This document shows positions 2,960 to 18,920 of a stretch of 22,089 bases of DNA, piece by piece. The DNA comes from Methanobacteriota archaeon (GTDB lineage: Archaea; Thermoplasmatota; E2; DHVEG-1). Numbering within the stretch: position 1 is the stretch's first letter; each line of letters opens with the position of its first letter. The position numbers and the translations under genes are program-made. The DNA is taken from positions 1 through 22,089 of the forward strand of contig CAVYNH010000002.1 of NCBI GenBank assembly GCA_963769885.1, given 5' to 3'. The notes under the pieces were generated by a model. It was not told where the DNA came from. It searched no databases and saw only the letters and a list, made by a program, of their open reading frames with translations.

Positions 2960-3286
2960 ATGACCCCGGACCCTAAAAAAACAATCCACCTCGACATCGA
3001 GTTCGACGGCAGCCCCCGCAGCCTCGCCCAGATCGCCACCATCCTCGACAAGACCCGCATCAAGATCATCTCCTCCTTCTCCCACCGCAGCCTCCAGCGA
3101 AACAGCACCCGCTGGGGCATCATTGCCGACACCACCCCCTCGCCCTACGGCCTCCAAGAGATCCAAGCCACCCTCGCCCAGCTTCCCGAAATCTACAACG
3201 TCACCATCACCACCGCCACCCAAGGCCGCTTCATCTGCAAGGTCCCCCCCTTCCCGGAAACGACTTCGTTTGCACCACCGTACTAG
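2960..3286 (+). CDS. Stand-alone ACT-like domain protein (108 aa)
   Basis: In frame with track ORF 2867..3286; ATG 2960 has an AGGAG SD. The pattern IHLDIEFDGSPRSLAQIATILDKTRIKIISSFS...LQEIQATLAQLPEIYNVTI fits the beta-alpha-beta-beta-alpha-beta ACT fold. Confidence 0.6.
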   Translation: MTPDPKKTIHLDIEFDGSPRSLAQIATILDKTRIKIISSFSHRSLQRNSTRWGIIADTTPSPYGLQEIQATLAQLPEIYNVTITTATQGRFICKVPPFPETTSFAPPY

Positions 3287-4426: not shown

Positions 4427-4434
4427 TATTTAAA
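4427..4434 (-). promoter_or_regulatory. TATA box for GT paralog A in the divergent intergenic region
   Basis: TTTAAATA on the minus strand, ~80 nt upstream of ATG 4346. Confidence 0.4.
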
Positions 4435-4528
4435 CATTCTCCACACGTCCCCCCTCGACGCAAACAACGCACCATGCATCGAAGAGAACAAAAGTTCTTA
4501 GAATCCGAATGATTACCAGTGCACTGCA

Positions 4529-5482
4529 ATGCCGCTGAACCGCTGCCCCATGATCCTGGAGAACACCGAAGGATACTCCGACTACAACATCCGCGACGAC
4601 TGGTACACCCACCGCACCCCCGGCCTCTCCATCGTCCTGCGCTGCTACGGCGAAGAACGCTGGATCGGCCCCTGCCTCCAAAGCGTCCTCCCCCTCTTCG
4701 ACGAAATCCTCATCACCCTCACCGACAAAGAAGGCGACCGCACCGAAGCCATCGCCAACAGCTTCCACTCCCCCAAAATCCGCATCCTCAAATACCCCTT
4801 CAAAATCAACACCATCACCACCAAAACCTACGGCACCAAACGACAACACATCTTCCACAAAAAATACCCGGGCGCCCCCTCCGTCCACAGCTTCTCCTAC
4901 TACACCAACTGGGGCATGGCCCAAACCCACCACACCCACGTCAGCCCAAAATGGGACGCCGACATGCTCCTCCTCCCCCACTACGCCACCACCGACTTCA
5001 AACACCTCATCCTCACCAAATCCATGGTCTACGTCCTCGGCTACAACGTCGCCACCCCCGACCTCCGCTACCTCTCCAAACTCTGGCCCCTCATCGGCCC
5101 CGAACAACGCTTCTTCAAAGTCGACAAATACCGCTACCACATCGGCGAAGTCGACGAACTCACCTACCAAGGCATCGTCAAGCTCGGCTACCCCGCCCGC
5201 TGGCAACAATTCCCCATCCAACAAACCCAATGCCTCTTCAACGCCCTCCTCCACCGCGACATCTACTACCCCACCCCCATCTTCATCCACACCAAACTCC
5301 TCAAAAACACCCACGACGACGGCCGCTTCGTCGGCAAACGCCTCTACGACACCCAATACCCCGGCTGGTGGCAAACCCTCCGCGACCAAACCCACCCCGG
5401 CAACCCCACCCCCACCCCCATCCCACCCTTCTTCCACAACCCCCCAGAAACCTACCTCAACCATACCCCCACCACACCATAA
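4529..5482 (+). CDS. GT-A/GT2 glycosyltransferase, CgtA-like; paralog B
   Basis: 317 aa with the same motifs as paralog A (GLSIVLRCYGEERWIGPCL, KYPF, SYYTNW, KWDADM). 38 of the first 52 residues are identical to paralog A. Confidence 0.8.
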   Translation: MPLNRCPMILENTEGYSDYNIRDDWYTHRTPGLSIVLRCYGEERWIGPCLQSVLPLFDEILITLTDKEGDRTEAIANSFHSPKIRILKYPFKINTITTKTYGTKRQHIFHKKYPGAPSVHSFSYYTNWGMAQTHHTHVSPKWDADMLLLPHYATTDFKHLILTKSMVYVLGYNVATPDLRYLSKLWPLIGPEQRFFKVDKYRYHIGEVDELTYQGIVKLGYPARWQQFPIQQTQCLFNALLHRDIYYPTPIFIHTKLLKNTHDDGRFVGKRLYDTQYPGWWQTLRDQTHPGNPTPTPIPPFFHNPPETYLNHTPTTP

Positions 5483-5527
5483 TCTTTTCATACCACCCAA
5501 CGAATAAACCCCAACCCGGGGGAGACC

Positions 5528-7321
5528 ATGCCACGCACCCTCATCCAAAAAATCTTCGCCACCCACACAAAAGACCCCGCCACCGTCGACGCCATCATCG
5601 AACTCGCCATCGACCTCAGAACCGCCCGCGACTTCGGCGGCGCCAACGTCGTCAAACACCTCCAAGACCACCACCTCACCCCCCAAGACCCCACCAAAAC
5701 CCTCTTCACCTTCGACTGCAACCCCGGCGGCTGCGACCAAAAATACGCCATCAACCAACACCTCTGCCGCCAATACGCCCGCACCCACCACATCCCCATC
5801 ACCGACATCAACCAAGGCATCGGCACCCACCTCGTCATCGACCACCACCTCATCACACCGGGCGACACCTTCGTCTCCACCGACAGCCACGCCAACATCC
5901 TCGGCGCCATCGGCGCCTTCGGCCAAGGCATGGGCGACATCGACATCGCCTACGCTTTCGCCCACGGCACCACCTGGTTCAAAGTCCCCCCCACCACACG
6001 CCTCACCCTCAAAGGAACACCCAGCCCCCACGCCACCGCCAAAGACGTCACCCTCAAACTCGCCAAAGACCTCGGCGCCAACGGCCTCCTCGGCTCCGCC
6101 GCCGAACTGACCGGCCCCTACACCGACCGCCTCACCCTCGACCAACGCATCACCATCGCCTCCATGGGCACCGAAATGGGCGCCATCGCCCTCCTCCTCA
6201 CCCCCAACAAACCCATCATCGACTACTACCATCACTCCCACCACCACACCATCCCCCCACTCGCCCCAGACCCAGACGCGACCTATAACCAAATCGTCAC
6301 TATCGATATCAACGGCCTGACCCCCCAACTCTCCCGTCCCGGCCACCCCGAAGACGTCACCAGCGTCCACGACTGCGAAGGCACCCCAATCGACTCCGGC
6401 TTCATCGGCTCCTGCACCAACGGCCGACTCGAAGACCTCAGAGCCGCCGCCGCCATCCTCAAGGGACGGCACATCGCACCCGGCCGCATCCTCAAAATCG
6501 TCCCCGCCACCGACGACATCTGGAACACCTGCCTCCAGGAAGGCCTCCTTAAAATCTTCAAGAACGCCGGCGCCCTCATCGGCTCCGCCGGCTGCGCCGG
6601 CTGCGCCGCCGGACAGATCGGCCAGACCGGCGCCGGCGAAGTCACGGTCTCCACCGGCAACCGCAACTTCACCGGCAAACAAGGCAAAGGAGACATCTAC
6701 CTCGCCTCCCCCCAGACCGCCGCCGCCAGCCTCATCGCCGGCTATATCACCACCGCCGATGCCATCCCCCGGTCCCCCGCGCCACTCCCGCAAAGCACCC
6801 CACCAGCCATCCAGAAGAAACCAGAATCAGCCAAGCATCCATCCCTACAACTGCAGGGGAAAGCCTGGGTCATCAATCAGGATAACATCGACACCGACGC
6901 CATCTACCACAACCGCCACCTCACCGTCACCAACATCGCTGAAATGGGCCAGTTCACCTTCGCCAGCTTCAAAGGCTACGAACAGTTCTCCAAAAACGCG
7001 GCCCCCGGCGACATCGTCGTCACCGGTAAGAATTTCGGCTGCGGCAGCAGCCGCCAACAGGCAGTCGACTGTTTCAAGTCCCTAGGCATCAGCCTCATCA
7101 TCGCCGACTCCTTCGGCGCCATCTACGAACGCAACGCCATCAACAGTGCCTTCCCCATCTTCACCCTCCGCAACGCCACCGCCTCCATCGCCACCGGCGA
7201 CCACCTCACCGTCGACCTCACCACCGGCACCATCATAAACACAACCACAGGAACTCGGCTGCAGGCCAAACCTTTTTCCCAGGTACAACGCTCCATCTAC
7301 GAACGAGGAGGACTCCTGTAA
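5528..7321 (+). CDS. Aconitase-family (LeuC/HacA + LeuD/HacB) large-small subunit fusion with an atypical active site
   Basis: 597 aa: STDSH, NMG-like SMGTEMGA, GSCTNGR, GCAGC (three Fe-S Cys) and STGNRNF. A Pro-rich linker leads to a swivel domain with DNIDTD and GKNFGCGSSR. Confidence 0.88.
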   Translation: MPRTLIQKIFATHTKDPATVDAIIELAIDLRTARDFGGANVVKHLQDHHLTPQDPTKTLFTFDCNPGGCDQKYAINQHLCRQYARTHHIPITDINQGIGTHLVIDHHLITPGDTFVSTDSHANILGAIGAFGQGMGDIDIAYAFAHGTTWFKVPPTTRLTLKGTPSPHATAKDVTLKLAKDLGANGLLGSAAELTGPYTDRLTLDQRITIASMGTEMGAIALLLTPNKPIIDYYHHSHHHTIPPLAPDPDATYNQIVTIDINGLTPQLSRPGHPEDVTSVHDCEGTPIDSGFIGSCTNGRLEDLRAAAAILKGRHIAPGRILKIVPATDDIWNTCLQEGLLKIFKNAGALIGSAGCAGCAAGQIGQTGAGEVTVSTGNRNFTGKQGKGDIYLASPQTAAASLIAGYITTADAIPRSPAPLPQSTPPAIQKKPESAKHPSLQLQGKAWVINQDNIDTDAIYHNRHLTVTNIAEMGQFTFASFKGYEQFSKNAAPGDIVVTGKNFGCGSSRQQAVDCFKSLGISLIIADSFGAIYERNAINSAFPIFTLRNATASIATGDHLTVDLTTGTIINTTTGTRLQAKPFSQVQRSIYERGGLL

Positions 7322-7335
7322 GGAGGTATACGTTT

Positions 7336-8604
7336 ATGGGTAAGACATTCGCTGAAAAAATCCTCGCCCACTACGGGAAAAAAGACGATGTGGTCCCAGG
7401 AGAGATCGTGACCGTCCACCCGGACCATCTTCTCATGCACGACAACGCCGCACCAATCATCAAGAAGATCACCGCCGATCTTGACTCCTACGGTATCTGC
7501 GCACCAAACCTCCCTATTATCGTCCTCGACCATGTCATCCCTGCAGTCGATGAGAAGACTGCGACTAATCATCAGTTGATTCGTGGGTTCGTCAACAAAT
7601 ACAACCTCCCCTTTTTCTACGATGTCGGCGAAGGCGTGTGCCATCAGATCGTCGTCGAAAAAGGACTCGCCCTCCCCGGGACGCTCCTGCTGGGAAGCGA
7701 TAGCCATACCTGCAGCTATGGAGCCGTCGGTGCGTTTTCTACCGGCATCGATCGGACCGAGGCCGCCGCCCTCTTGCTCACGGGTGAGACCTGGCTGAAG
7801 GTCCCGAAGAGCATCCGCGTCAACCTTAACGGGATGATGCAGCCTATGGTCTGTGCCAAGGATGTCGTCCTCTGGATTATTGGGCAGCTCGGCGCGAGTG
7901 GTGCCGACTACTGCTCGGTCGAATACCATGGGGATATCGCCCAGTTCTCCGTTGATGATCGGTTCGCCATCGCCAACATGGGCGTCGAGATGGGGGCGAA
8001 GAACGCCGTGTTCCCCGTAGATAAGATTACCACGAAATATCTCCGCGGCATTGGCATAGAGGCCTCGAAATATACCCCGGTTTCTCCTGACCACGACGCC
8101 GGGTATGCGTCCACATTGGATGTTCCTCTCGAAGAGATCCCGCCGATGGTCGCGGTCCCTCATCATGTCGACACGGTCAAACCGGTCACTGAGGTCGCCG
8201 GCATCGCCATCCAGCAGTGCTTGTTGGGGACTTGCACGAACGGGCGGCTGTCTGATCTTCGGGTTGCTGCGCGGGTGCTGAAGGGCAAGACTGTGCATAA
8301 GGGCGTCCGTCTCTTGGTGCTGCCGGCATCGCGGCAGGTCTATCTGGATGCGGTTAAGGAGGGCTACATTGATGTCCTCGTCAAGGCTGGTGGGCTGGTG
8401 CTGCCGCCCGGGTGTGGTCCCTGTCTGGGGGCGCATCAGGGGGTGTTGGCGCCGGGTGAACGGTGCCTGAGTACGTCGAATCGGAATTTTAAGGGTCGGA
8501 TGGGCTGCAAGGACGCGGAAATCTATCTGGCGGGTCCGGCGACGGTCGCCGCCTCGGCTATCCATGGGGTCATCACGGACCCGCGTGCGGAGGTGAAGCC
8601 ATGA
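7336..8604 (+). CDS. leuC: 3-isopropylmalate dehydratase/homoaconitase-type large subunit (LeuC/HacA family; substrate not determinable)
   Basis: 422 aa with canonical MHD, LDH, GVCHQ, DSHT, CTNGR, CGPCLG and STSNRNFKGRMG. AGGAGGT SD at 7321. Confidence 0.9.
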   Translation: MGKTFAEKILAHYGKKDDVVPGEIVTVHPDHLLMHDNAAPIIKKITADLDSYGICAPNLPIIVLDHVIPAVDEKTATNHQLIRGFVNKYNLPFFYDVGEGVCHQIVVEKGLALPGTLLLGSDSHTCSYGAVGAFSTGIDRTEAAALLLTGETWLKVPKSIRVNLNGMMQPMVCAKDVVLWIIGQLGASGADYCSVEYHGDIAQFSVDDRFAIANMGVEMGAKNAVFPVDKITTKYLRGIGIEASKYTPVSPDHDAGYASTLDVPLEEIPPMVAVPHHVDTVKPVTEVAGIAIQQCLLGTCTNGRLSDLRVAARVLKGKTVHKGVRLLVLPASRQVYLDAVKEGYIDVLVKAGGLVLPPGCGPCLGAHQGVLAPGERCLSTSNRNFKGRMGCKDAEIYLAGPATVAASAIHGVITDPRAEVKP

Positions 8605-9119
8605 AGGTTTGGCGGTATGGCGATGATGTGAACACGGACATGTTGTTTCCTGGGAAGTATACCTATACCTGTAGTACGCCTGATGAGATTAAGCCGCATC
8701 TCCTAGAGGATCTTGATCCGTTGTTCGCGAAGGGTGTGCAGCGGGGGGATCTCATCGTGGCGGGGCGGAATTTCGGCTGCGGCAGCAGCCGCGAGCAGCC
8801 GGTGCTCGGGCTGGTGGCGGTCGGGGTGAGCGCGGTGGTCGCGGAGAGTTTCGCGCGGATTTTCTATCGTGCGGCGATCAACCAGGGGTTGCTGCTGATA
8901 GAGTGTCCGGCGGCGGTCAAGGCGTATCGGACTGGTGCTGCGATTGTGGTGGATGTGCAGTCGGGAATGGTCCATGTGGGGTCTGCGTCGTTTCCGTTCC
9001 CGCGGCTTCCGGCAGAGATTCTGGCGATCCGTGAGGCGGGTGGGCTGTTGCCGTACACGCGGGCGCGGTTGAAGAAGGGGAAGGTGTGTGTTGGGGAAAA
9101 AGAGGGAAATAAAGGGTGA
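8601..9119 (+). CDS. leuD: 3-isopropylmalate dehydratase/homoaconitase-type small subunit (LeuD/HacB family)
   Basis: 172 aa: GDDVNTD, GRNFGCGSSRE, SFARIFYR.AIN.G and AGGLL. ATGA overlap with the large-subunit stop. Confidence 0.9.
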   Translation: MKVWRYGDDVNTDMLFPGKYTYTCSTPDEIKPHLLEDLDPLFAKGVQRGDLIVAGRNFGCGSSREQPVLGLVAVGVSAVVAESFARIFYRAAINQGLLLIECPAAVKAYRTGAAIVVDVQSGMVHVGSASFPFPRLPAEILAIREAGGLLPYTRARLKKGKVCVGEKEGNKG

Positions 9120-12250: not shown

Positions 12251-13282
12251 TTATAAACCTGCGGACTCGACCGCCACCCGCCAGACGTCCCCCTGATTCA
12301 GCAGCTCCAGCCGCCGCGGCATGAACTGCTGCAGCACCCAGATGTTCGTCTTCATATGACTGCTGCACTCCCGGACCAGACAGGCCGACGTCTCACGACA
12401 GGCGACCATGTACGGCAGCAGCTGATCCACCGCGTGCGGATCTAACGTCGCCCCCGCTTTGATGTCGGAGATCAACCGTCGCATCGCCGTCTTGCCTACC
12501 TGCTCCGCTGGGAGCTGCCGCTCGCCGAGGACGCCGGCCCCTAAGACCGTCTCCTCGGTGGAAGACCACACCGTAATCCCCACGCCCTGGGACGGTGACG
12601 ACGCCTGCTCCGTCTTCAAGCTCGCTCGGAGATTAGCGGCCGTTGCTTCCTTGATTGCCGCGTGCTTCATCCGCGTCGTGATATGTTCGGGGAGCCCTGA
12701 GCTGTGGATGATGCCCTCAATAACCGAGAATGTCTGCGGGGTATCAACGAGGAATGGCTGCAGCTGGCTCTCAGGCGAGACTGTTAACTCGGCGCGACCG
12801 CCGCCTTTGGGGTAGTAACCGCGTTGCAGGAGGCGCACCTCCGCTCTCACACCCATGCGGCGGGCTAACGGTAGGAACACATGTGCAAAATAGTCCCAGG
12901 ATGGCGCCCAGAGCACGTCTGTGCCGCCAGTCAGCGAAATCGTGAGTGGCCCGGTCGTTCGCAGCCCTCCCAGGAGGCATGCCTGCAGGATCAGGGTGAT
13001 GTTCCCCGCAGTGCCGATGTCAAAGGTATAAGTGCCTGGCCGGACAAGGCCAGGGGAGAATCTAATGGTTCTGGAGCCGATGGACAGCCCGGTGACCTCC
13101 GCGTTGCAGATGGCCTGCAGGCAGGAGATTGCGGTGTAATGCTGTGGGCGTAGGCCGGGGATCGGCCGGTTCGCCCGGATGTTGTTGACCTCGATGGGCG
13201 TCTGGGTGTACACAGAGTACGCGATGGCGGTGCGTAGGATCTGTCCGCCGCCTTCACCGAAGGAGCCATCAATTGTCAGCAT
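12251..13282 (-). CDS. rtcA: RNA 3'-terminal phosphate cyclase
   Basis: True start ATG 13282 (343 aa): IDGSFGEGGGQILRTA, NIRANRP.PGLRPQH, GGTDV, RGYYPKGGG and catalytic LDPHAVDQLL. Confidence 0.95.
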   Translation of the reverse strand: MLTIDGSFGEGGGQILRTAIAYSVYTQTPIEVNNIRANRPIPGLRPQHYTAISCLQAICNAEVTGLSIGSRTIRFSPGLVRPGTYTFDIGTAGNITLILQACLLGGLRTTGPLTISLTGGTDVLWAPSWDYFAHVFLPLARRMGVRAEVRLLQRGYYPKGGGRAELTVSPESQLQPFLVDTPQTFSVIEGIIHSSGLPEHITTRMKHAAIKEATAANLRASLKTEQASSPSQGVGITVWSSTEETVLGAGVLGERQLPAEQVGKTAMRRLISDIKAGATLDPHAVDQLLPYMVACRETSACLVRECSSHMKTNIWVLQQFMPRRLELLNQGDVWRVAVESAGL

Positions 13283-13778
13283 TCGGGCACCGTAAGGGGA
13301 GCAGTTCGTTAAGAAGGATGAGAGCTTCGGTGCAGGCACTGTCTTTGTTCTGCAGCCTGTCACCATGGAACAGGAATCGGCGGACGACGATGGTCTGGGG
13401 GGTGGCGACGGCGACGTAGACGAGGCCGACGGGTTTAGTCGGGGTGCCGCCGGTCGGACCGGCGATGCCGGTGGTGGCGATGCCGTAGTCGACCTTGGCG
13501 CGGGTGCGGATGCCGGTGGCCATGGCTCTGGCGGTTTCTTCGCTGACGGCGCCGTGTTCTTGGATGGTGTGTGTGGGGACGCCGAGGAGTTCGTGTTTTG
13601 CGGTGTTGCTGTAGGTGATGACTCCGCGGTCGAAGTAGTCTGAGCTTCCGGAGATGTTGGTGAGGGTGCTGGCGAGGAGGCCGCCGGTGCAGGATTCGGC
13701 GGTTGCGACTGTGGCGTGGAGTGCTCGGAGTCGTTCAGAGGTTTTATTAAGAAGTTGTTCATCTACCACTTGCGTCAC
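13269..13778 (-). CDS. cinA: CinA/PncC family nicotinamide-mononucleotide deamidase (C-terminal CinA domain only)
   Basis: 169 aa: TAESCTGG, SGSSDYF, YSN.AK, GAVS, TGIAGPTGG and KPVGLV. Overlaps the rtcA start by 14 nt. Confidence 0.92.
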   Translation of the reverse strand: MTQVVDEQLLNKTSERLRALHATVATAESCTGGLLASTLTNISGSSDYFDRGVITYSNTAKHELLGVPTHTIQEHGAVSEETARAMATGIRTRAKVDYGIATTGIAGPTGGTPTKPVGLVYVAVATPQTIVVRRFLFHGDRLQNKDSACTEALILLNELLPLRCPNADN

Positions 13779-15185: not shown

Positions 15186-18100
15186 CTATGGATGTCTCGC
15201 GGGAAGCGTGACGATGACGGCACAATCAACTCGCTGTACGATTTGACGATCTCGCTTCGCGAGAAAACCGTTTTTCTCTTGAGACCAGTCTCCTGTCAAA
15301 ATGATTATCTGAACCTTTCTTTGCCGAACGAATTTTGCTATGCCTCTACTAATATCTTGGACATAGAGGACTAACGGAGTGATACGACGACGGAGAGCCT
15401 GGATAGGCGCGCGTCTAAAGAGACCGAAGTCCAGGGTTCTGGTCTCAATATACTCCGGGTTATACAGGGAGTAGAGTGGGGCGTTTTGCGGAAATTCGAT
15501 GACCTTCGCCGCAATCACATTCACATCAGGAATGAACGAGGATGAAGTCAAGGCCGCTGCGAACTCAAAAGGCTCGTTTTCAAAAGAATGCAGGACTGGG
15601 ATGAGGACCCGGAATGGCGGCTGCAACTTCTCCGCCTGTTTTTTGGCGAGACCGACCAAAATCAGAGCAGTATCGGGCAATTCATCTATCCATGAGGCAG
15701 ATCGAGTCACCGCATGAGACCCAGCGAGAAGGATCTTCTGAGGGATGCAGGAGATAATCATGTGCGCCTTGACGTTCTTCGCCATCTCAAGCATCGTTGT
15801 TGATAGCTGCGTGGCATCATGGATATCGATGTAGTCAAGAGGAAGATCGATGTCTGCCGCATAATCACGCATATAACGTTCCATGTCATAGTCAACCGTT
15901 GTCTTGAGTTCCTGACTAAGGACCCGCAGGACCACGAGCCGGGAACCGACATTACGGGCATACGTCATAGCGATGATCGCCACATCGTCCTCCCCCGGCT
16001 CAGACGTGACTGGGAAGAGGATCGGCGCCGCGCGTTCAACGAAGGGGGTCGGAATCTTTCGCTCCTTCGGGATTTCAAGCTCACCAAACTCTGGAAGGGC
16101 CGTCACGTGACGAAGTGTCGGTGCCTTCTCCACAAGAACATAATGACGGAGAATGAACTTCCGCACCTCCTCCATGACAATGACAGCAGGAGCAATCCCG
16201 AGAAGAATCACCCAATCGGTCCATGGAATAGCCGTAATGTTCAATACAGGGCCAATCCCAGGAATGTAGACGACCAAAAGGAGAATTGCGAACTCGATAA
16301 TCAAGGCACCAATCAGCCAGCGATTGCGGAACCGGACTGAAAAGGTGGATTTAATGTTGGTCCGAGTCGCGAGCAGCATGCCGAGTTGACCCATCATTAT
16401 CCCAACGAGGACGATGGTGGTGCCATGCAGGTACACTGCCATGTTGCTCAGGGTGAGTTCCCCAAAGTGCCATCCTCCTTGCATCCAGACAAGAAAGCAC
16501 CAAAAGAGGGCGAAGACTCCGACAATAAACCCGACATATCCCGAGCGGACCAAGGTCGGGAGGCTGAAGAGCCGTTCTTCCCGTTTCCGTGGTTGTCGCT
16601 CCATGATGCCAGGCTCTGGAGGCTCAAGGCTGAGGGCCAAGGACGGCGGGATTTCCAACACTAGGTCGATGAGGAGGACGCCGACCACTGCAAGCGGCAA
16701 CGGCGTCCGGAGAAGGACGAAGGCGATAAACGTGGCAAGCTCCGCCCAGTTGTGGGTGAAGACATAGACGATGAATTTTTTGAGGTTGTCAAAGACGGAG
16801 CGGCCTTCTTCGATTCCATTGACAATCGAGGCGAAATTGTCGTCCATGAGGATCATGTCTGCCGATTCCCGCGCCACATCCGTGCCGGAGATCCCCATAG
16901 CGATGCCGATGTCAGCCTCCAGCAATGCTGGGGCGTCGTTAGCGCCATCACCCGTGACTGCAACGGTCTCCCCTTTTTTGCGCAAGACCCGAACGATGCG
17001 TAGTTTCTGTTCAGGGGTGATACGGGCGAACACAACGTCTGGGGTGTTGAGTGCTGAGTCAAGCTCGTCATCGGAAATCGTTGCCAGTTTGTATCCGGTC
17101 ATAATCAGATAAGCCTTTGAGGTGATGATGCCGACTTTCCGAGCGATGGCCTCCGCAGTCAATTCATGATCGCCGGTAATCATGATAATACGAATCCCAG
17201 CGCTCTGAGCCTTTTGCACTGCGAGTGGCACATCGCGGCGGGGAGGATCGTAGATGGCTGCAAGGCCGACGAACATGAGGTTGTTCTCGACGGCTTCGGA
17301 ATCGAACTTTTTCAGATCAGCTGGCAGGTCACGGATGGCCAGGGCAATCACTCGGTAGGTTTGCCTTGCAAAAAAATCGATCTCGTCACTGATTTTTTTC
17401 TGCAACTCCGAGGTCATCGGAAGTACTTGGTCCTTCCATTGCACACGTGTACACCGGGAGAGGATTTCGTTTCCCGCGCCTTTCACGTAGGCGGTGGTCT
17501 TTCCATGCTCGTCCTTGTGGATGCTCGTCATCATTTTCCGGTGCGAATCAAACGGGATGAGGGCGACTCGGGGGTTCGAGTTTACCAGTTGTTTGTACTG
17601 GATGCCTGCTTTACCTGAAAAGACGAGGAGAGCTGCATCGGTGGAATCCCCCAGGGCCGTCCATCGAGCCTTTTTTTGATCAACCGGGGGCAGTAAGGTC
17701 GCCTTATTATCCAGCGCGGCAACCTTCGCGAACCCGAGGAGATCCTGTTGGTCCCCTATTGAAAGCCTGCGGTTTCCGTTGAAGACGGCACCCTGAGGAT
17801 TGAAGCCTTCACCGGAGACGTTGTAGATTGTGTCCGCCATCCAGATTTTCTGCACCATCATCTGCCCTGTGGTGATCGTGCCGGTCTTGTCGCTGCAGAT
17901 GACGGTCGTCGACCCGAGGGTTTCCACGGAGGAGAGTTTTTTCACGACCACGTTTCTTCTGGACATGGCCAGGGAACTCAAGGCAAGGGAGAGGGTGACG
18001 GTAATCTGGAGTCCTTCAGGGACCAGCGAAACCATGACTCCAATCATGAAGAGAAGGCTATCGCCGATCTCTAAGTGTAAGATAAAGAAAGCAATGGAAA

Positions 18101-18920
18101 GGAAGAGGACGCCGAGTGCGATGGCTACAACGAAATTGATTTTGGCGGTGTAGTTGATTTCACGCTGCAATGGGCTGGGTGGTTCCTCGATCGTCTGCGT
18201 CATAGTGACGATCTTTCCGAAAACGGTGTTTGGACCCGTTGAGAACACCACGGCCGTGGCTGACCCTGAGGAGGCCGTGGTGCTTGCGAACACGAGGTTG
18301 GAACATTCGATTATTTGGCCGTTGAATGTCTCAGGGATTGGGTCGCAGGATCGCGGCTGCGGTTCTGCCTCCCCTGTCAAGCTCGAGTTGTCCACGGAGA
18401 ATTGGTAGCAGCAGACGAGGCGTGCATCCGCGGGAATTTTGTCTCCTTCTTCCAGACTGATGATATCGCCGGGCACTATGTTGACAATGGGTATCTGCTT
18501 GGTCTGCCCGTCTCGGATTACTCGTGCGGTTGCAGGAACGAGCTCCCGGATGGCTTCGACGGCGCGCTCAGCGCGATGCTCCTGGAAGAGATTGAAAATG
18601 ACGCTTATCAAGACCACGATGATGATGGCGAATCCCATTTGAATTGAGGATGCGTCGTTCGAGCTAATACCGGTGATAAAAGACAGCAGGGCCGCGACGA
18701 GCAGCAAGATGTTGAATAGATTCTTGAACTGCGAGAAAATGCGGCTGAGAAGCCGAAACTGCTTCTTCTCCGGAATCAGGTTTGGGCCGTACTGCTGCAG
18801 AAGCTGAGTTGCCTCGTTTTCTGAGAGACCATCGTCGTTCGTGTTGAGCTTCTCAAAGGTCTGTTGAAGCGTACCGCTAACCCATTGTTGCATGGAAGGA
18901 TCTGAGGGGCAACTTTCCAT
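15186..18920 (-). CDS. P2-type cation-transporting P-type ATPase with a C-terminal tandem USP-like extension
   Basis: 1244 aa: LTGE, PEGL, DKTGT, KGA, DPPR, MITGD, TGDGAND and DDNF. The C-terminal ~300 aa show USP-like patterns (ILFPV...A...A....SRLVVLRV; VLIPV; GIAKFVRQRKVQIIIL...IVQRVDCAVIV). Confidence 0.9.
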   Translation of the reverse strand: MESCPSDPSMQQWVSGTLQQTFEKLNTNDDGLSENEATQLLQQYGPNLIPEKKQFRLLSRIFSQFKNLFNILLLVAALLSFITGISSNDASSIQMGFAIIIVVLISVIFNLFQEHRAERAVEAIRELVPATARVIRDGQTKQIPIVNIVPGDIISLEEGDKIPADARLVCCYQFSVDNSSLTGEAEPQPRSCDPIPETFNGQIIECSNLVFASTTASSGSATAVVFSTGPNTVFGKIVTMTQTIEEPPSPLQREINYTAKINFVVAIALGVLFLSIAFFILHLEIGDSLLFMIGVMVSLVPEGLQITVTLSLALSSLAMSRRNVVVKKLSSVETLGSTTVICSDKTGTITTGQMMVQKIWMADTIYNVSGEGFNPQGAVFNGNRRLSIGDQQDLLGFAKVAALDNKATLLPPVDQKKARWTALGDSTDAALLVFSGKAGIQYKQLVNSNPRVALIPFDSHRKMMTSIHKDEHGKTTAYVKGAGNEILSRCTRVQWKDQVLPMTSELQKKISDEIDFFARQTYRVIALAIRDLPADLKKFDSEAVENNLMFVGLAAIYDPPRRDVPLAVQKAQSAGIRIIMITGDHELTAEAIARKVGIITSKAYLIMTGYKLATISDDELDSALNTPDVVFARITPEQKLRIVRVLRKKGETVAVTGDGANDAPALLEADIGIAMGISGTDVARESADMILMDDNFASIVNGIEEGRSVFDNLKKFIVYVFTHNWAELATFIAFVLLRTPLPLAVVGVLLIDLVLEIPPSLALSLEPPEPGIMERQPRKREERLFSLPTLVRSGYVGFIVGVFALFWCFLVWMQGGWHFGELTLSNMAVYLHGTTIVLVGIMMGQLGMLLATRTNIKSTFSVRFRNRWLIGALIIEFAILLLVVYIPGIGPVLNITAIPWTDWVILLGIAPAVIVMEEVRKFILRHYVLVEKAPTLRHVTALPEFGELEIPKERKIPTPFVERAAPILFPVTSEPGEDDVAIIAMTYARNVGSRLVVLRVLSQELKTTVDYDMERYMRDYAADIDLPLDYIDIHDATQLSTTMLEMAKNVKAHMIISCIPQKILLAGSHAVTRSASWIDELPDTALILVGLAKKQAEKLQPPFRVLIPVLHSFENEPFEFAAALTSSSFIPDVNVIAAKVIEFPQNAPLYSLYNPEYIETRTLDFGLFRRAPIQALRRRITPLVLYVQDISRGIAKFVRQRKVQIIILTGDWSQEKNGFLAKRDRQIVQRVDCAVIVTLPARHP

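Follow-up and report, generated by a model that had tools for sequence, protein, structure and literature searches.

A conserved two-enzyme module of the aconitase superfamily in sediment archaea and bacteria, with a remodelled active site in one enzyme and citrate-cleavage genes as recurrent neighbours

Results

The subject of this work is a cluster of three genes, P0001, P0002 and P0003, that occupies positions 5528-9119 of a 22,089-nucleotide stretch of archaeal DNA (GenBank contig CAVYNH010000002.1, positions 1 to 22,089; hereafter the window). The window is contig C2 of genome G000 (2.09 Mb in 7 contigs, 92% complete), whose relatives are Thermoplasmatota metagenome-assembled genomes (MAGs) from sediments. 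All three proteins pass the gathering scores of the aconitase superfamily (PF00330 and PF00694), P0002 with 320 bits and P0003 with 64.7 bits, and P0001 carries both domains in a single chain (Aconitase, 2.5e-73, 248 bits; Aconitase_C, 1.4e-14, 55 bits). We call the clade of this fusion type X, whether its members are fused or split, and we refer to P0002 and P0003 as the pair and to the three genes together as the module. The features are as follows.

5528..7321, plus strand: P0001, type-X aconitase-superfamily hydro-lyase with fused large and swivel domains, 597 aa (from Pfam, motifs and tree)
7322..7335, plus strand: intergenic spacer of 14 nt with a GGAGG ribosome-binding site (from the sequence)
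7336..8604, plus strand: P0002, large subunit of a canonical LeuCD/HacAB-type hydro-lyase, 422 aa (from NCBIfam and residues)
8601..9119, plus strand: P0003, small (swivel) subunit, 172 aa, with loop NTDMLFPGKYTYTCS and GCGSSREQP (from NCBIfam and loop alignment)

The TAA stop of P0001 (7319-7321) is followed by 14 nt that include GGAGG and then by the ATG of P0002 at 7336, and the ATG of P0003 at 8601 overlaps the TGA of P0002 (8602-8604) in an ATGA. An earlier, sequence-only reading of the window had described a fusion, a large subunit and a small subunit in tight linkage, and its coordinates, the 14-nt gap and the overlap are all confirmed. The same holds for its remark that the swivel-domain loops are unlike the YLRT and YLVY types, as they read HNRHLTV in P0001 (DTDAIYHNRHLTVT) and PGKYTYT in P0003 (NTDMLFPGKYTYTC), and for its statement that the window has no leuA/leuB, lys or aks genes, since no LeuA-, LeuB-, Lys- or Aks-type gene was found among the window open reading frames (ORFs) scanned.

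To what extent the fusion and the pair belong together can be read from their distribution. We compared 80 loci around relatives of P0001, and about 40 of them show the order fusion-large-small, their P0002 orthologues being 60-85% identical. This order is present in Thermoplasmatota, Planctomycetota, WOR-3, Gemmatimonadota and Krumholzibacteriota, and the module as a whole ranges over Thermoplasmatota and at least six bacterial phyla; genomes of the KSB1/Zhuqueibacterota type have a few genes inserted between its parts. The second enzyme is itself a LeuC-LeuD fusion of 593-596 aa in Desulfuromonas, Anaerolineaceae and Chloroflexota MAGs (L080:4337-6127, L082:5980-7761 and L087:2742-4523), and these fused forms, with an LTYT-type loop, AG(S/N)LTY(T/A), are the sister of the YTYT pair clade in our tree. 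In two complete Thermoplasmatales chromosomes the pair is missing from the fusion locus but encoded elsewhere, at 66-68% identity and not near any leu gene. The sequence-only reading had suggested checking whether the fusion co-occurs with a YTYT-type pair, and it does: in a phylum sample of 301 genomes (thresholds of at least 56% identity for the fused orthologue and at least 59% for the pair), the fused orthologue is present in 59, the pair in 63 and both in 53. Six genomes, all MAGs of 69-92% completeness, have the fusion only, and ten have the pair only, six of which hold a split type X. These counts are not independent events, because the positives concentrate in a few families. With an identical three-gene order in dozens of genomes of two domains, the linkage is far above chance, and the fusion and the YTYT-type pair are thus a real conserved two-enzyme module. 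Among sequencing runs, no RNA run was listed for the region, and the matches were partial DNA matches from wetland and freshwater-sediment metagenomes.

Judged by its residues, the pair is a catalytically complete enzyme of the LeuCD/HacAB type. The catalytic residues of P0002 are all present (H35-D36, D65-H66, C102-H103-Q104, D122-S123-H124, N214, E218, C300, C360, C363, N382-R383 and R388), and the catalytic and binding set of aconitase, isopropylmalate isomerase (IPMI) and homoaconitase (HACN) is invariant in 38 large and 37 small pair subunits, which keep the motifs HD, DH, CHQ, DSH, N214, E218, NRNFKGR and GSSRE. The residue set of canonical isomerases (in pig aconitase numbering Asp100-His101, His147, Asn258, Arg452 and Gln72/His) is found in the split pair and is not found in P0001. 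P0002 scores 528 bits against NF001614 (cut-off 385) and 518.7 against TIGR01343 (cut-off 385.7), and P0003 scores 158.8 bits against TIGR02087 (LeuD/DmdB; cut-off 108.95). The best NCBIfam matches are HacA/LeuC models for P0002 and LeuD/HacB models for P0003, as would be expected of an isopropylmalate isomerase or homoaconitase of leucine, lysine or coenzyme B biosynthesis, but every equivalog cut-off for LeuC, LeuD, HacA and HacB is missed: TIGR02083/LEU2 (449 vs 610.65), TIGR02084/leud (139 vs 245.85), TIGR00170/171 (217 vs 560 and 43.5 vs 116), HacA_Meth (460 vs 550) and HacB (130-132 vs 230). P0002 also falls below the cut-off of the aconitase model NF005558 (344 against 612), and neither it nor P0001 reaches the equivalog level of the TIGR01342, AcnA or AcnB models.

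Among solved structures, P0001 (224 bits) and the pair (133 bits for P0003) are both closest to the Methanocaldococcus jannaschii IPMI/citramalate isomerase (MJ0499/MJ1277; 4kp1, 4nqy, 3vba) and homoaconitase (MJ1003/MJ1271; 4kp2, 2pkp), which again fits a biosynthetic role. Shared with these structures are the [4Fe-4S] ligands, the base motif GSSR and an architecture of two subunits, and in either case specificity is expected to depend on a four-residue loop in the small subunit. The loop itself is different. HMMER alignment places YTYT of the pair opposite YLVY in M. jannaschii IPMI (3vba), YLRT in HACN (2pkp) and YNLT in the P. horikoshii protein (1v7l), and NTDMLFPGKYTYTCS is nearly invariant in pair small subunits of both domains of life. 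By sequence the pair is thus an orthologous group of its own, recognizable by the loop FPGKYTYTC. Further differences from the M. jannaschii enzymes are the scores below the equivalog cut-offs, the fusion and five altered active-site positions of type X, and a genome without a LeuA/AksA-type synthase.

Type X is, by tree and motifs, a separate, deep and previously undescribed clade of the aconitase superfamily. In a maximum-likelihood tree it stands on a long branch with 100% SH-aLRT support, outside a group that comprises the pair clade, the PRK07229 aconitases, a true LeuC and a LeuC-like gene beside a true isocitrate dehydrogenase (IDH). The large part of P0001 lies just under the level of TIGR01343/NF001614 (380.3 vs 385 bits) and its swivel part lies above that of TIGR02087 (126.1 vs 108.95). 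Its domain order and size resemble those of the fused aconitase of the PRK07229/TIGR01342 type (about 650 aa, in anaerobes and archaea), but P0001 reaches only 287 bits against the aconitate hydratase model NF005558, whose cut-off is 612, and it branches apart from these enzymes. In full-text searches of the literature, neither the type-X clade nor the YTYT pair nor the module turned up, the one match to 'novel aconitase' being a 2003 prediction of AcnX.

The active site of type X is remodelled at five positions, in a manner that is invariant or nearly so across 79 fused and 6 split members.

Pig aconitase Gln72: Arg34 in type X (with Asp35)
Pig aconitase Asp100-His101: Asp63-Cys64 in type X (Cys in 73 of 79, Thr in 6 of 79)
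Pig aconitase His147: Thr100 in type X, followed by His101
Pig aconitase Asn258: Ser212 in type X
Pig aconitase Arg452: Lys384 in type X

In canonical enzymes His101 protonates the leaving hydroxyl and His147 belongs to the network round the unique iron, and more than 15 of 20 active-site residues are identical among aconitase, IPMI and HACN (PMC8184944). Other parts of the site are retained in type X, namely (pig numbering) Asp165-Ser166-His167, Glu262, Asn446-Arg447 and Ser642-Ser643-Arg644. The cluster-ligand cysteines (CTNGR and CxxC) and the Ser-Ser-Arg base motif are invariant in the 79 type-X sequences and in the 38 large and 37 small subunits of the pair; P0001 itself has C296, C356 and C359 as well as DSH and GSSR. 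Like YLVY of IPMI, the loop of type X, (Y/H)L(A/S/T)(I/V), bears no charge, and HLTV of P0001 aligns to this YLVY in 3vba. Split forms of type X (L098:6424-8170, L099:934-2729, L100:6744-8539, L102:1477-3221 and L103:6578-8340, from related Thermoplasmatota families) carry the same RD / DC / GTH / SM / GKQG signature with a loop HN(K/Q/R)(Y/H)LHIT, and they stand alone, with the other partners not alongside. The fused forms are one subclade, sister to the split forms. Because split forms of the same clade exist, it is the active-site signature and not fusion as such that defines type X. A remodelled site has a precedent within the superfamily in AcnX, where canonical His positions are replaced (with Cys at the His147 position) and the enzymes are mono-functional dehydratases (PMC8184944, PMC5144071, PMC10040528). 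AcnX differs from type X in belonging to another family (PF04412/PF01989) with another domain order.

Three kinds of gene recur beside the module or beside type X. A small HD/HDIG protein of about 190 aa is encoded directly upstream in 36 loci; searches with it returned no solved relative and no specific family, only 'HD domain' clusters in the atlas. An AksF/LeuB-like member of the Iso_dh family, here called IsoDH', is found in about 10 loci, and a citrate-cleavage system in about 41 of the 80. The latter is one of four interchangeable kinds.

Kind 1: CitF with a 256-aa citryl-CoA lyase (CCL), in most Thermoplasmatales, in the order HD-CitF-CCL-type X
Kind 2: a SucC-like beta chain with an alpha chain that fuses SucD-like and CCL parts
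Kind 3: a separate protein like citryl-CoA synthetase (CCS) and a CCL
Kind 4: a CitD-CitE fusion with CitF

CitF scores above the citF equivalog cut-off and CCL above the citryl-CoA lyase cut-offs, and the CCL domains retain the catalytic and oxaloacetate-binding residues of citrate synthase. Three Planctomycetota loci add a 2-oxoacid:ferredoxin oxidoreductase. IsoDH' reads S-P-I-V-G-L-R where adjacent true IDHs read S-A-N-V-A-x-R. In two complete chromosomes with an aconitase, IsoDH' is the sole member of the Iso_dh family, and it can therefore probably act as an isocitrate dehydrogenase.

The sequence-only reading had emphasized that the module comes with no synthase or dehydrogenase partner. 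This is true of the window, but elsewhere IsoDH', HD and citrate-cleavage genes are in operons with the module, and G000 has its own partners on contigs C6 and C7. An operon at C6:534483-538434 (L097:6483-10434, minus strand) encodes an HD protein of 178 aa, a SucC-like beta' chain of 427 aa and an alpha' chain of 715 aa in which a SucD-like part and a citrate-synthase fold (CCL) are fused; all three are 60-64% identical to their counterparts in the Planctomycetota cluster. In addition to canonical AclB/AclA, the genome has here a second, non-canonical enzyme resembling ATP-citrate lyase (ACL). The operon occupies a site that matches the HD-CitF-CCL-type X place of relatives, with UbiD-like and AcnX genes upstream; the AcnX large and small subunit genes are about 4.4 kb from it. 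IsoDH' is at C7:115914-117035, and the own-genome partners overall (HD, ACL-beta', ACL-alpha' and IsoDH') have 51-64% identity to the bacterial cluster genes. On one Thermoplasmatales MAG contig (L081:45-14791) the canonical and second gene sets stand side by side on one strand, in the order aconitase, AclB, AclA, true IDH, IsoDH', HD, type X, pair large subunit, pair small subunit, PycB and biotin carboxylase. We considered a 2-oxoglutarate carboxylase for the biotin enzymes of this contig and set it aside, as their scores are those of pyruvate carboxylase PycB and biotin carboxylase.

The genome's canonical complement bears directly on what the module might do. G000 encodes a 654-aa aconitase of the PRK07229 type (946.6 bits, NF005558 cut-off 612) beside NADP-IDH, canonical AclB/AclA, acetyl-CoA synthetase and a class I fumarase, and an aconitase of this type is present in 36 of 41 genomes of the same family. 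Turning to amino-acid pathways, G000, at 92% completeness, yielded no LeuA/CimA/HCS-type (HMGL-like) synthase other than a match of the pyruvate-carboxylase type, and no IlvD. The HMGL-like synthase is absent from G002 and G004 too, with no LeuA/CimA/HCS-type synthase in a WOR-3 chromosome or a complete Thermoplasmatales chromosome. Searches for LysX gave no match above cut-off in five genomes. DapA was not found in the archaeal G000, G004 and G005 and is present in the bacterial G001 and G002, which therefore use the diaminopimelate route to lysine. A Gemmatimonadota chromosome has a separate LeuCD in a true leu operon in addition to the pair. Because the genome lacks a LeuA-family synthase and IlvD, the pair is not an ordinary leucine enzyme, and on gene content we exclude roles in leucine and isoleucine biosynthesis as well as in the alpha-aminoadipate route to lysine. 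The Lyase_1 family (PF00206) includes class II fumarase. A fumarase role for type X was also discarded, as a class I fumarase and a PF00206 member are present in all five genomes tested.

P0001 is situated in a strand-skew domain, one of the kilobase-scale domains between window positions 3000 and 10000 that are independent of gene orientation, with a GC skew of -0.26 to -0.53 across 3-7 kb and of +0.18 to +0.37 across 8-10 kb. Third codon positions switch within one operon, from C/A-rich in P0001 and in the ORF at 4529-5482 to G/T-rich in P0003; GC and AT skews at these positions are -0.83 and +0.62 in P0001 and +0.53 and -0.64 in P0003. The amino-acid composition of P0001 shifts as well, with His at 4.2% (orthologue median 1.5%), Thr at 10.4% (5.3%) and Pro up and Glu, Val, Lys and Met down, and the tree program marks its composition as deviant; the functional motifs are all intact. 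A 787-aa open frame at 4430-6793 (minus strand) runs antisense to the ORF at 4529-5482 and to P0001. Rather than a gene, this frame is most likely a consequence of the extreme skew, because a G/T-rich strand holds few stop codons.

The other window ORFs scanned encode DUF7948, arylsulfotransferase-like and alpha/beta-hydrolase proteins, a PAS sensor, RtcA, a CAAX protease, a P-type ATPase and a peptidase C25. The RtcA-like ORF (12251-13762, minus strand) has 503 aa, and its cyclase domain begins only at residue 169. The P-type ATPase ORF (15186-18920, minus strand) has 1244 aa and runs about 320 residues past the last Pfam domain.

Discussion

Having found that type X and the YTYT-type pair travel together through two domains of life, the next question is what they do. 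The module probably marks an uncharacterised step of central carbon metabolism; its substrate, its direction, the division of labour and the role of Cys64 are what we infer from sequence. From the steady association with citryl-CoA enzymes and a beta-decarboxylating dehydrogenase, both hydro-lyases would be expected to connect a 2-substituted with a 3-substituted malate-type acid of oxaloacetate origin, and a distant analogue is disfavored by the lyases, which score as citrate enzymes. We tentatively favor a model, though we would not yet bet on it, in which the pair and type X are two different [4Fe-4S] hydro-lyases that act consecutively on citrate or a near analogue. The module, IsoDH', the small HD protein and a citrate-cleavage enzyme would then make up a second, parallel citrate-to-2-oxoacid gene set, in which the cleavage enzyme is the fusion of succinyl-CoA-synthetase-like and citryl-CoA-lyase parts in G000 and CitF with CCL, CCS with CCL, or CitDEF elsewhere. 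Both hydro-lyases would work between lyase and dehydrogenase on an oxaloacetate-derived tricarboxylate (citrate or a close analogue). Type X might take the tertiary-alcohol, citrate-side step with Cys64 as proton donor, and the canonical pair might take the secondary-alcohol, isocitrate-side step. That the catalytic site is remodelled in the fusion alone lends some weight to a split isomerisation. As to direction, CitF with CCL would favor cleavage, and ACL-type enzymes are reversible; for Desulfobacter, ATP-yielding citrate synthesis by ACL is cited in PMC12743299.

Division of such a reaction between enzymes is known from other systems. The 2-methylcitrate cycle has PrpD or AcnD/PrpF share the isomerisation with AcnB. 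In the fungal alpha-aminoadipate pathway, homocitrate is isomerised by two aconitase-family enzymes, aconitase and homoaconitase (PMC3556520). These systems, in which dehydration and rehydration are divided and at least one enzyme belongs to the aconitase family, are the mechanistic model for the module, but their genes form no operonic pair and they do not have the Asp-Cys / Thr-His / Ser / Lys signature, and the module's division of labour, unlike theirs, is a prediction. The reductive tricarboxylic acid (TCA) cycle of Hydrogenobacter thermophilus makes a similar point, as citryl-CoA synthetase and citryl-CoA lyase carry out two steps there (Aoshima et al. 2004, as cited in PMC12743299). The module's lyase partners are of the same SucCD-like and CCL type, with the alpha chain in G000 fused to 715 aa, and the idea of a reaction divided between separate enzymes might apply to the module too; unlike CCS/CCL of Hydrogenobacter, the ACL-like enzyme of G000 is known from sequence alone. 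We know of no two-step aconitase in Hydrogenobacter.

Several observations weigh against consecutive action on citrate. A canonical aconitase is already present in G000 and in 36 of 41 genomes of the family, and therefore another path between citrate and isocitrate would be superfluous unless it differed in substrate, direction or regulation; the coexisting full canonical set points to some such difference. The pair holds every catalytic residue and could do both half-reactions alone. Neither small-domain loop has the Arg that marks recognition of a carboxylate side chain in methanogen homoaconitase. IsoDH' is without Asn115 of isocitrate dehydrogenase, which the neighboring true IDHs have, and the module adjoins no partner in its own genome. 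In addition, a family of the same class (f3, 11 genomes) has a split type X and IsoDH' and no close orthologue of the pair, so type X is not strictly dependent on the pair.

It is also possible, though we consider it the less probable account, that the two enzymes share a neighborhood and no split isomerisation. The pair would then be a complete isomerase for citrate/isocitrate or a homologue, and type X would have another intermediate as its substrate, perhaps one connected with the HD protein, and would be a mono-functional hydratase or dehydratase like AcnX or another kind of lyase or isomerase. The completeness of the pair fits such separate roles, as do f3 and most Thermoplasmatales loci, in which type X accompanies HD-CitF-CCL but lacks the pair. 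With 5 of about 20 active-site positions changed, type X stands at the limit of the variation among canonical isomerases, which have more than 15 of 20 in common (PMC8184944), and AcnX members with altered His positions have turned into simple dehydratases. But separate roles sit poorly with the tight fusion-large-small adjacency, with gaps of a few bases in two domains, and with the high genome-level co-occurrence, and the neighborhoods suggest no alternative substrate for type X.

Somewhat less plausible still, and partly overlapping with our favored model of two consecutive hydro-lyases for citrate or a near analogue, is that the substrate is not citrate but (S)-citramalate, homocitrate or a methylcitrate-type acid from a si-type lyase or synthase. 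Two hydro-lyases would be needed here because the configuration or substitution of the lyase product could not be dehydrated by a LeuCD-type enzyme, for which PrpD or AcnD/PrpF with AcnB in the 2-methylcitrate cycle is a precedent. An analogue could explain why the full canonical set (ACL, NADP-IDH and aconitase) is found in the same genome and, in L081, in the same supercluster as the module, why IsoDH' lacks Asn115, and why the type-X loop is as uncharged as YLVY of IPMI. However, the four lyase systems that interchange beside the module are all known for citrate, CitF and CCL score as citrate enzymes with oxaloacetate-site residues intact, and IsoDH' is probably an isocitrate dehydrogenase, given the two aconitase-bearing chromosomes in which it is the sole Iso_dh-family gene. 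Nor is there a lysine, leucine or isoleucine pathway to take up the products.

The sequence-only reading had suggested that the two enzymes may jointly replace aconitase and had proposed to check whether they anticorrelate with AcnA/AcnB. One might expect such a replacement in the TCA or reductive TCA cycle of a WOR-3 chromosome and a 5.2-Mb chromosome, which show no aconitase of the AcnA, AcnB or PRK07229 type besides the module; the WOR-3 genome has one more LeuCD-like set beside a true IDH. For the lineage studied here the proposal is contradicted by the 654-aa aconitase, which scores 946 bits (cut-off 612) and neighbors IDH and ACL. As 36 of the 41 family genomes also have a canonical aconitase, replacement is unsupported, the anticorrelation is absent, and we regard this explanation as very improbable. 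Least probable of all, barely worth retaining, is that the pair serves leucine, lysine or coenzyme B synthesis as an isopropylmalate isomerase or homoaconitase, since its HacA/LeuC and LeuD/HacB matches and its M. jannaschii structural relatives are outweighed by the missed equivalog cut-offs, a loop that is neither YLVY nor YLRT, the absence of a LeuA/AksA/HCS-type synthase and IlvD from G000, the lack of a LysX-level match and of DapA in G000, G004 and G005 (with DapA in G001 and G002), and the Gemmatimonadota genome's own LeuCD in its leu operon.

The additional WOR-3 set deserves a comment of its own. At L094:6725-11336 of the WOR-3 chromosome, a LeuC-like/LeuD-like set lies directly upstream of a true IDH (S-A-N-V-A-I-R), whose open frame starts with a Lys/Ala-rich stretch of about 90 residues. 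Because the genome is without an HMGL-like synthase, this set may be a two-subunit aconitase.

Carriers of the module are among the most abundant heterotrophs of anoxic sediments, including Thermoprofundales/MBG-D archaea, WOR-3, KSB1, Planctomycetota and Anaerolineae. Genome-based models of carbon flow label these genes 'isopropylmalate dehydratase' or 'homoaconitase', and such labels lead the models to invent amino-acid pathways that do not exist or to overlook a step of central metabolism. For the enzymology of Fe-S hydro-lyases, an aconitase-superfamily clade with Cys in place of the textbook general acid would be a new case. If the two enzymes do split an isomerisation, prokaryotes would have, encoded in an operon, their own equivalent of the fungal division between aconitase and homoaconitase, and the reductive TCA cycle would gain a third two-step reaction beside its CCS/CCL and carboxylase/reductase variants. 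We find it tempting to go further and to speculate that type X is a new functional class that uses Cys for His101, that it forms an obligate two-step isomerase with the YTYT pair, and that together with IsoDH', HD and the SucCD-like/CCL lyase the two make up a complete second citrate branch, although in this full form the proposal is doubtful. If true, a second citrate branch would be widespread in uncultured anaerobes of two domains, either as an all-two-step (ancestral-style) segment of a reductive or oxidative TCA cycle or as a citrate-analogue pathway.

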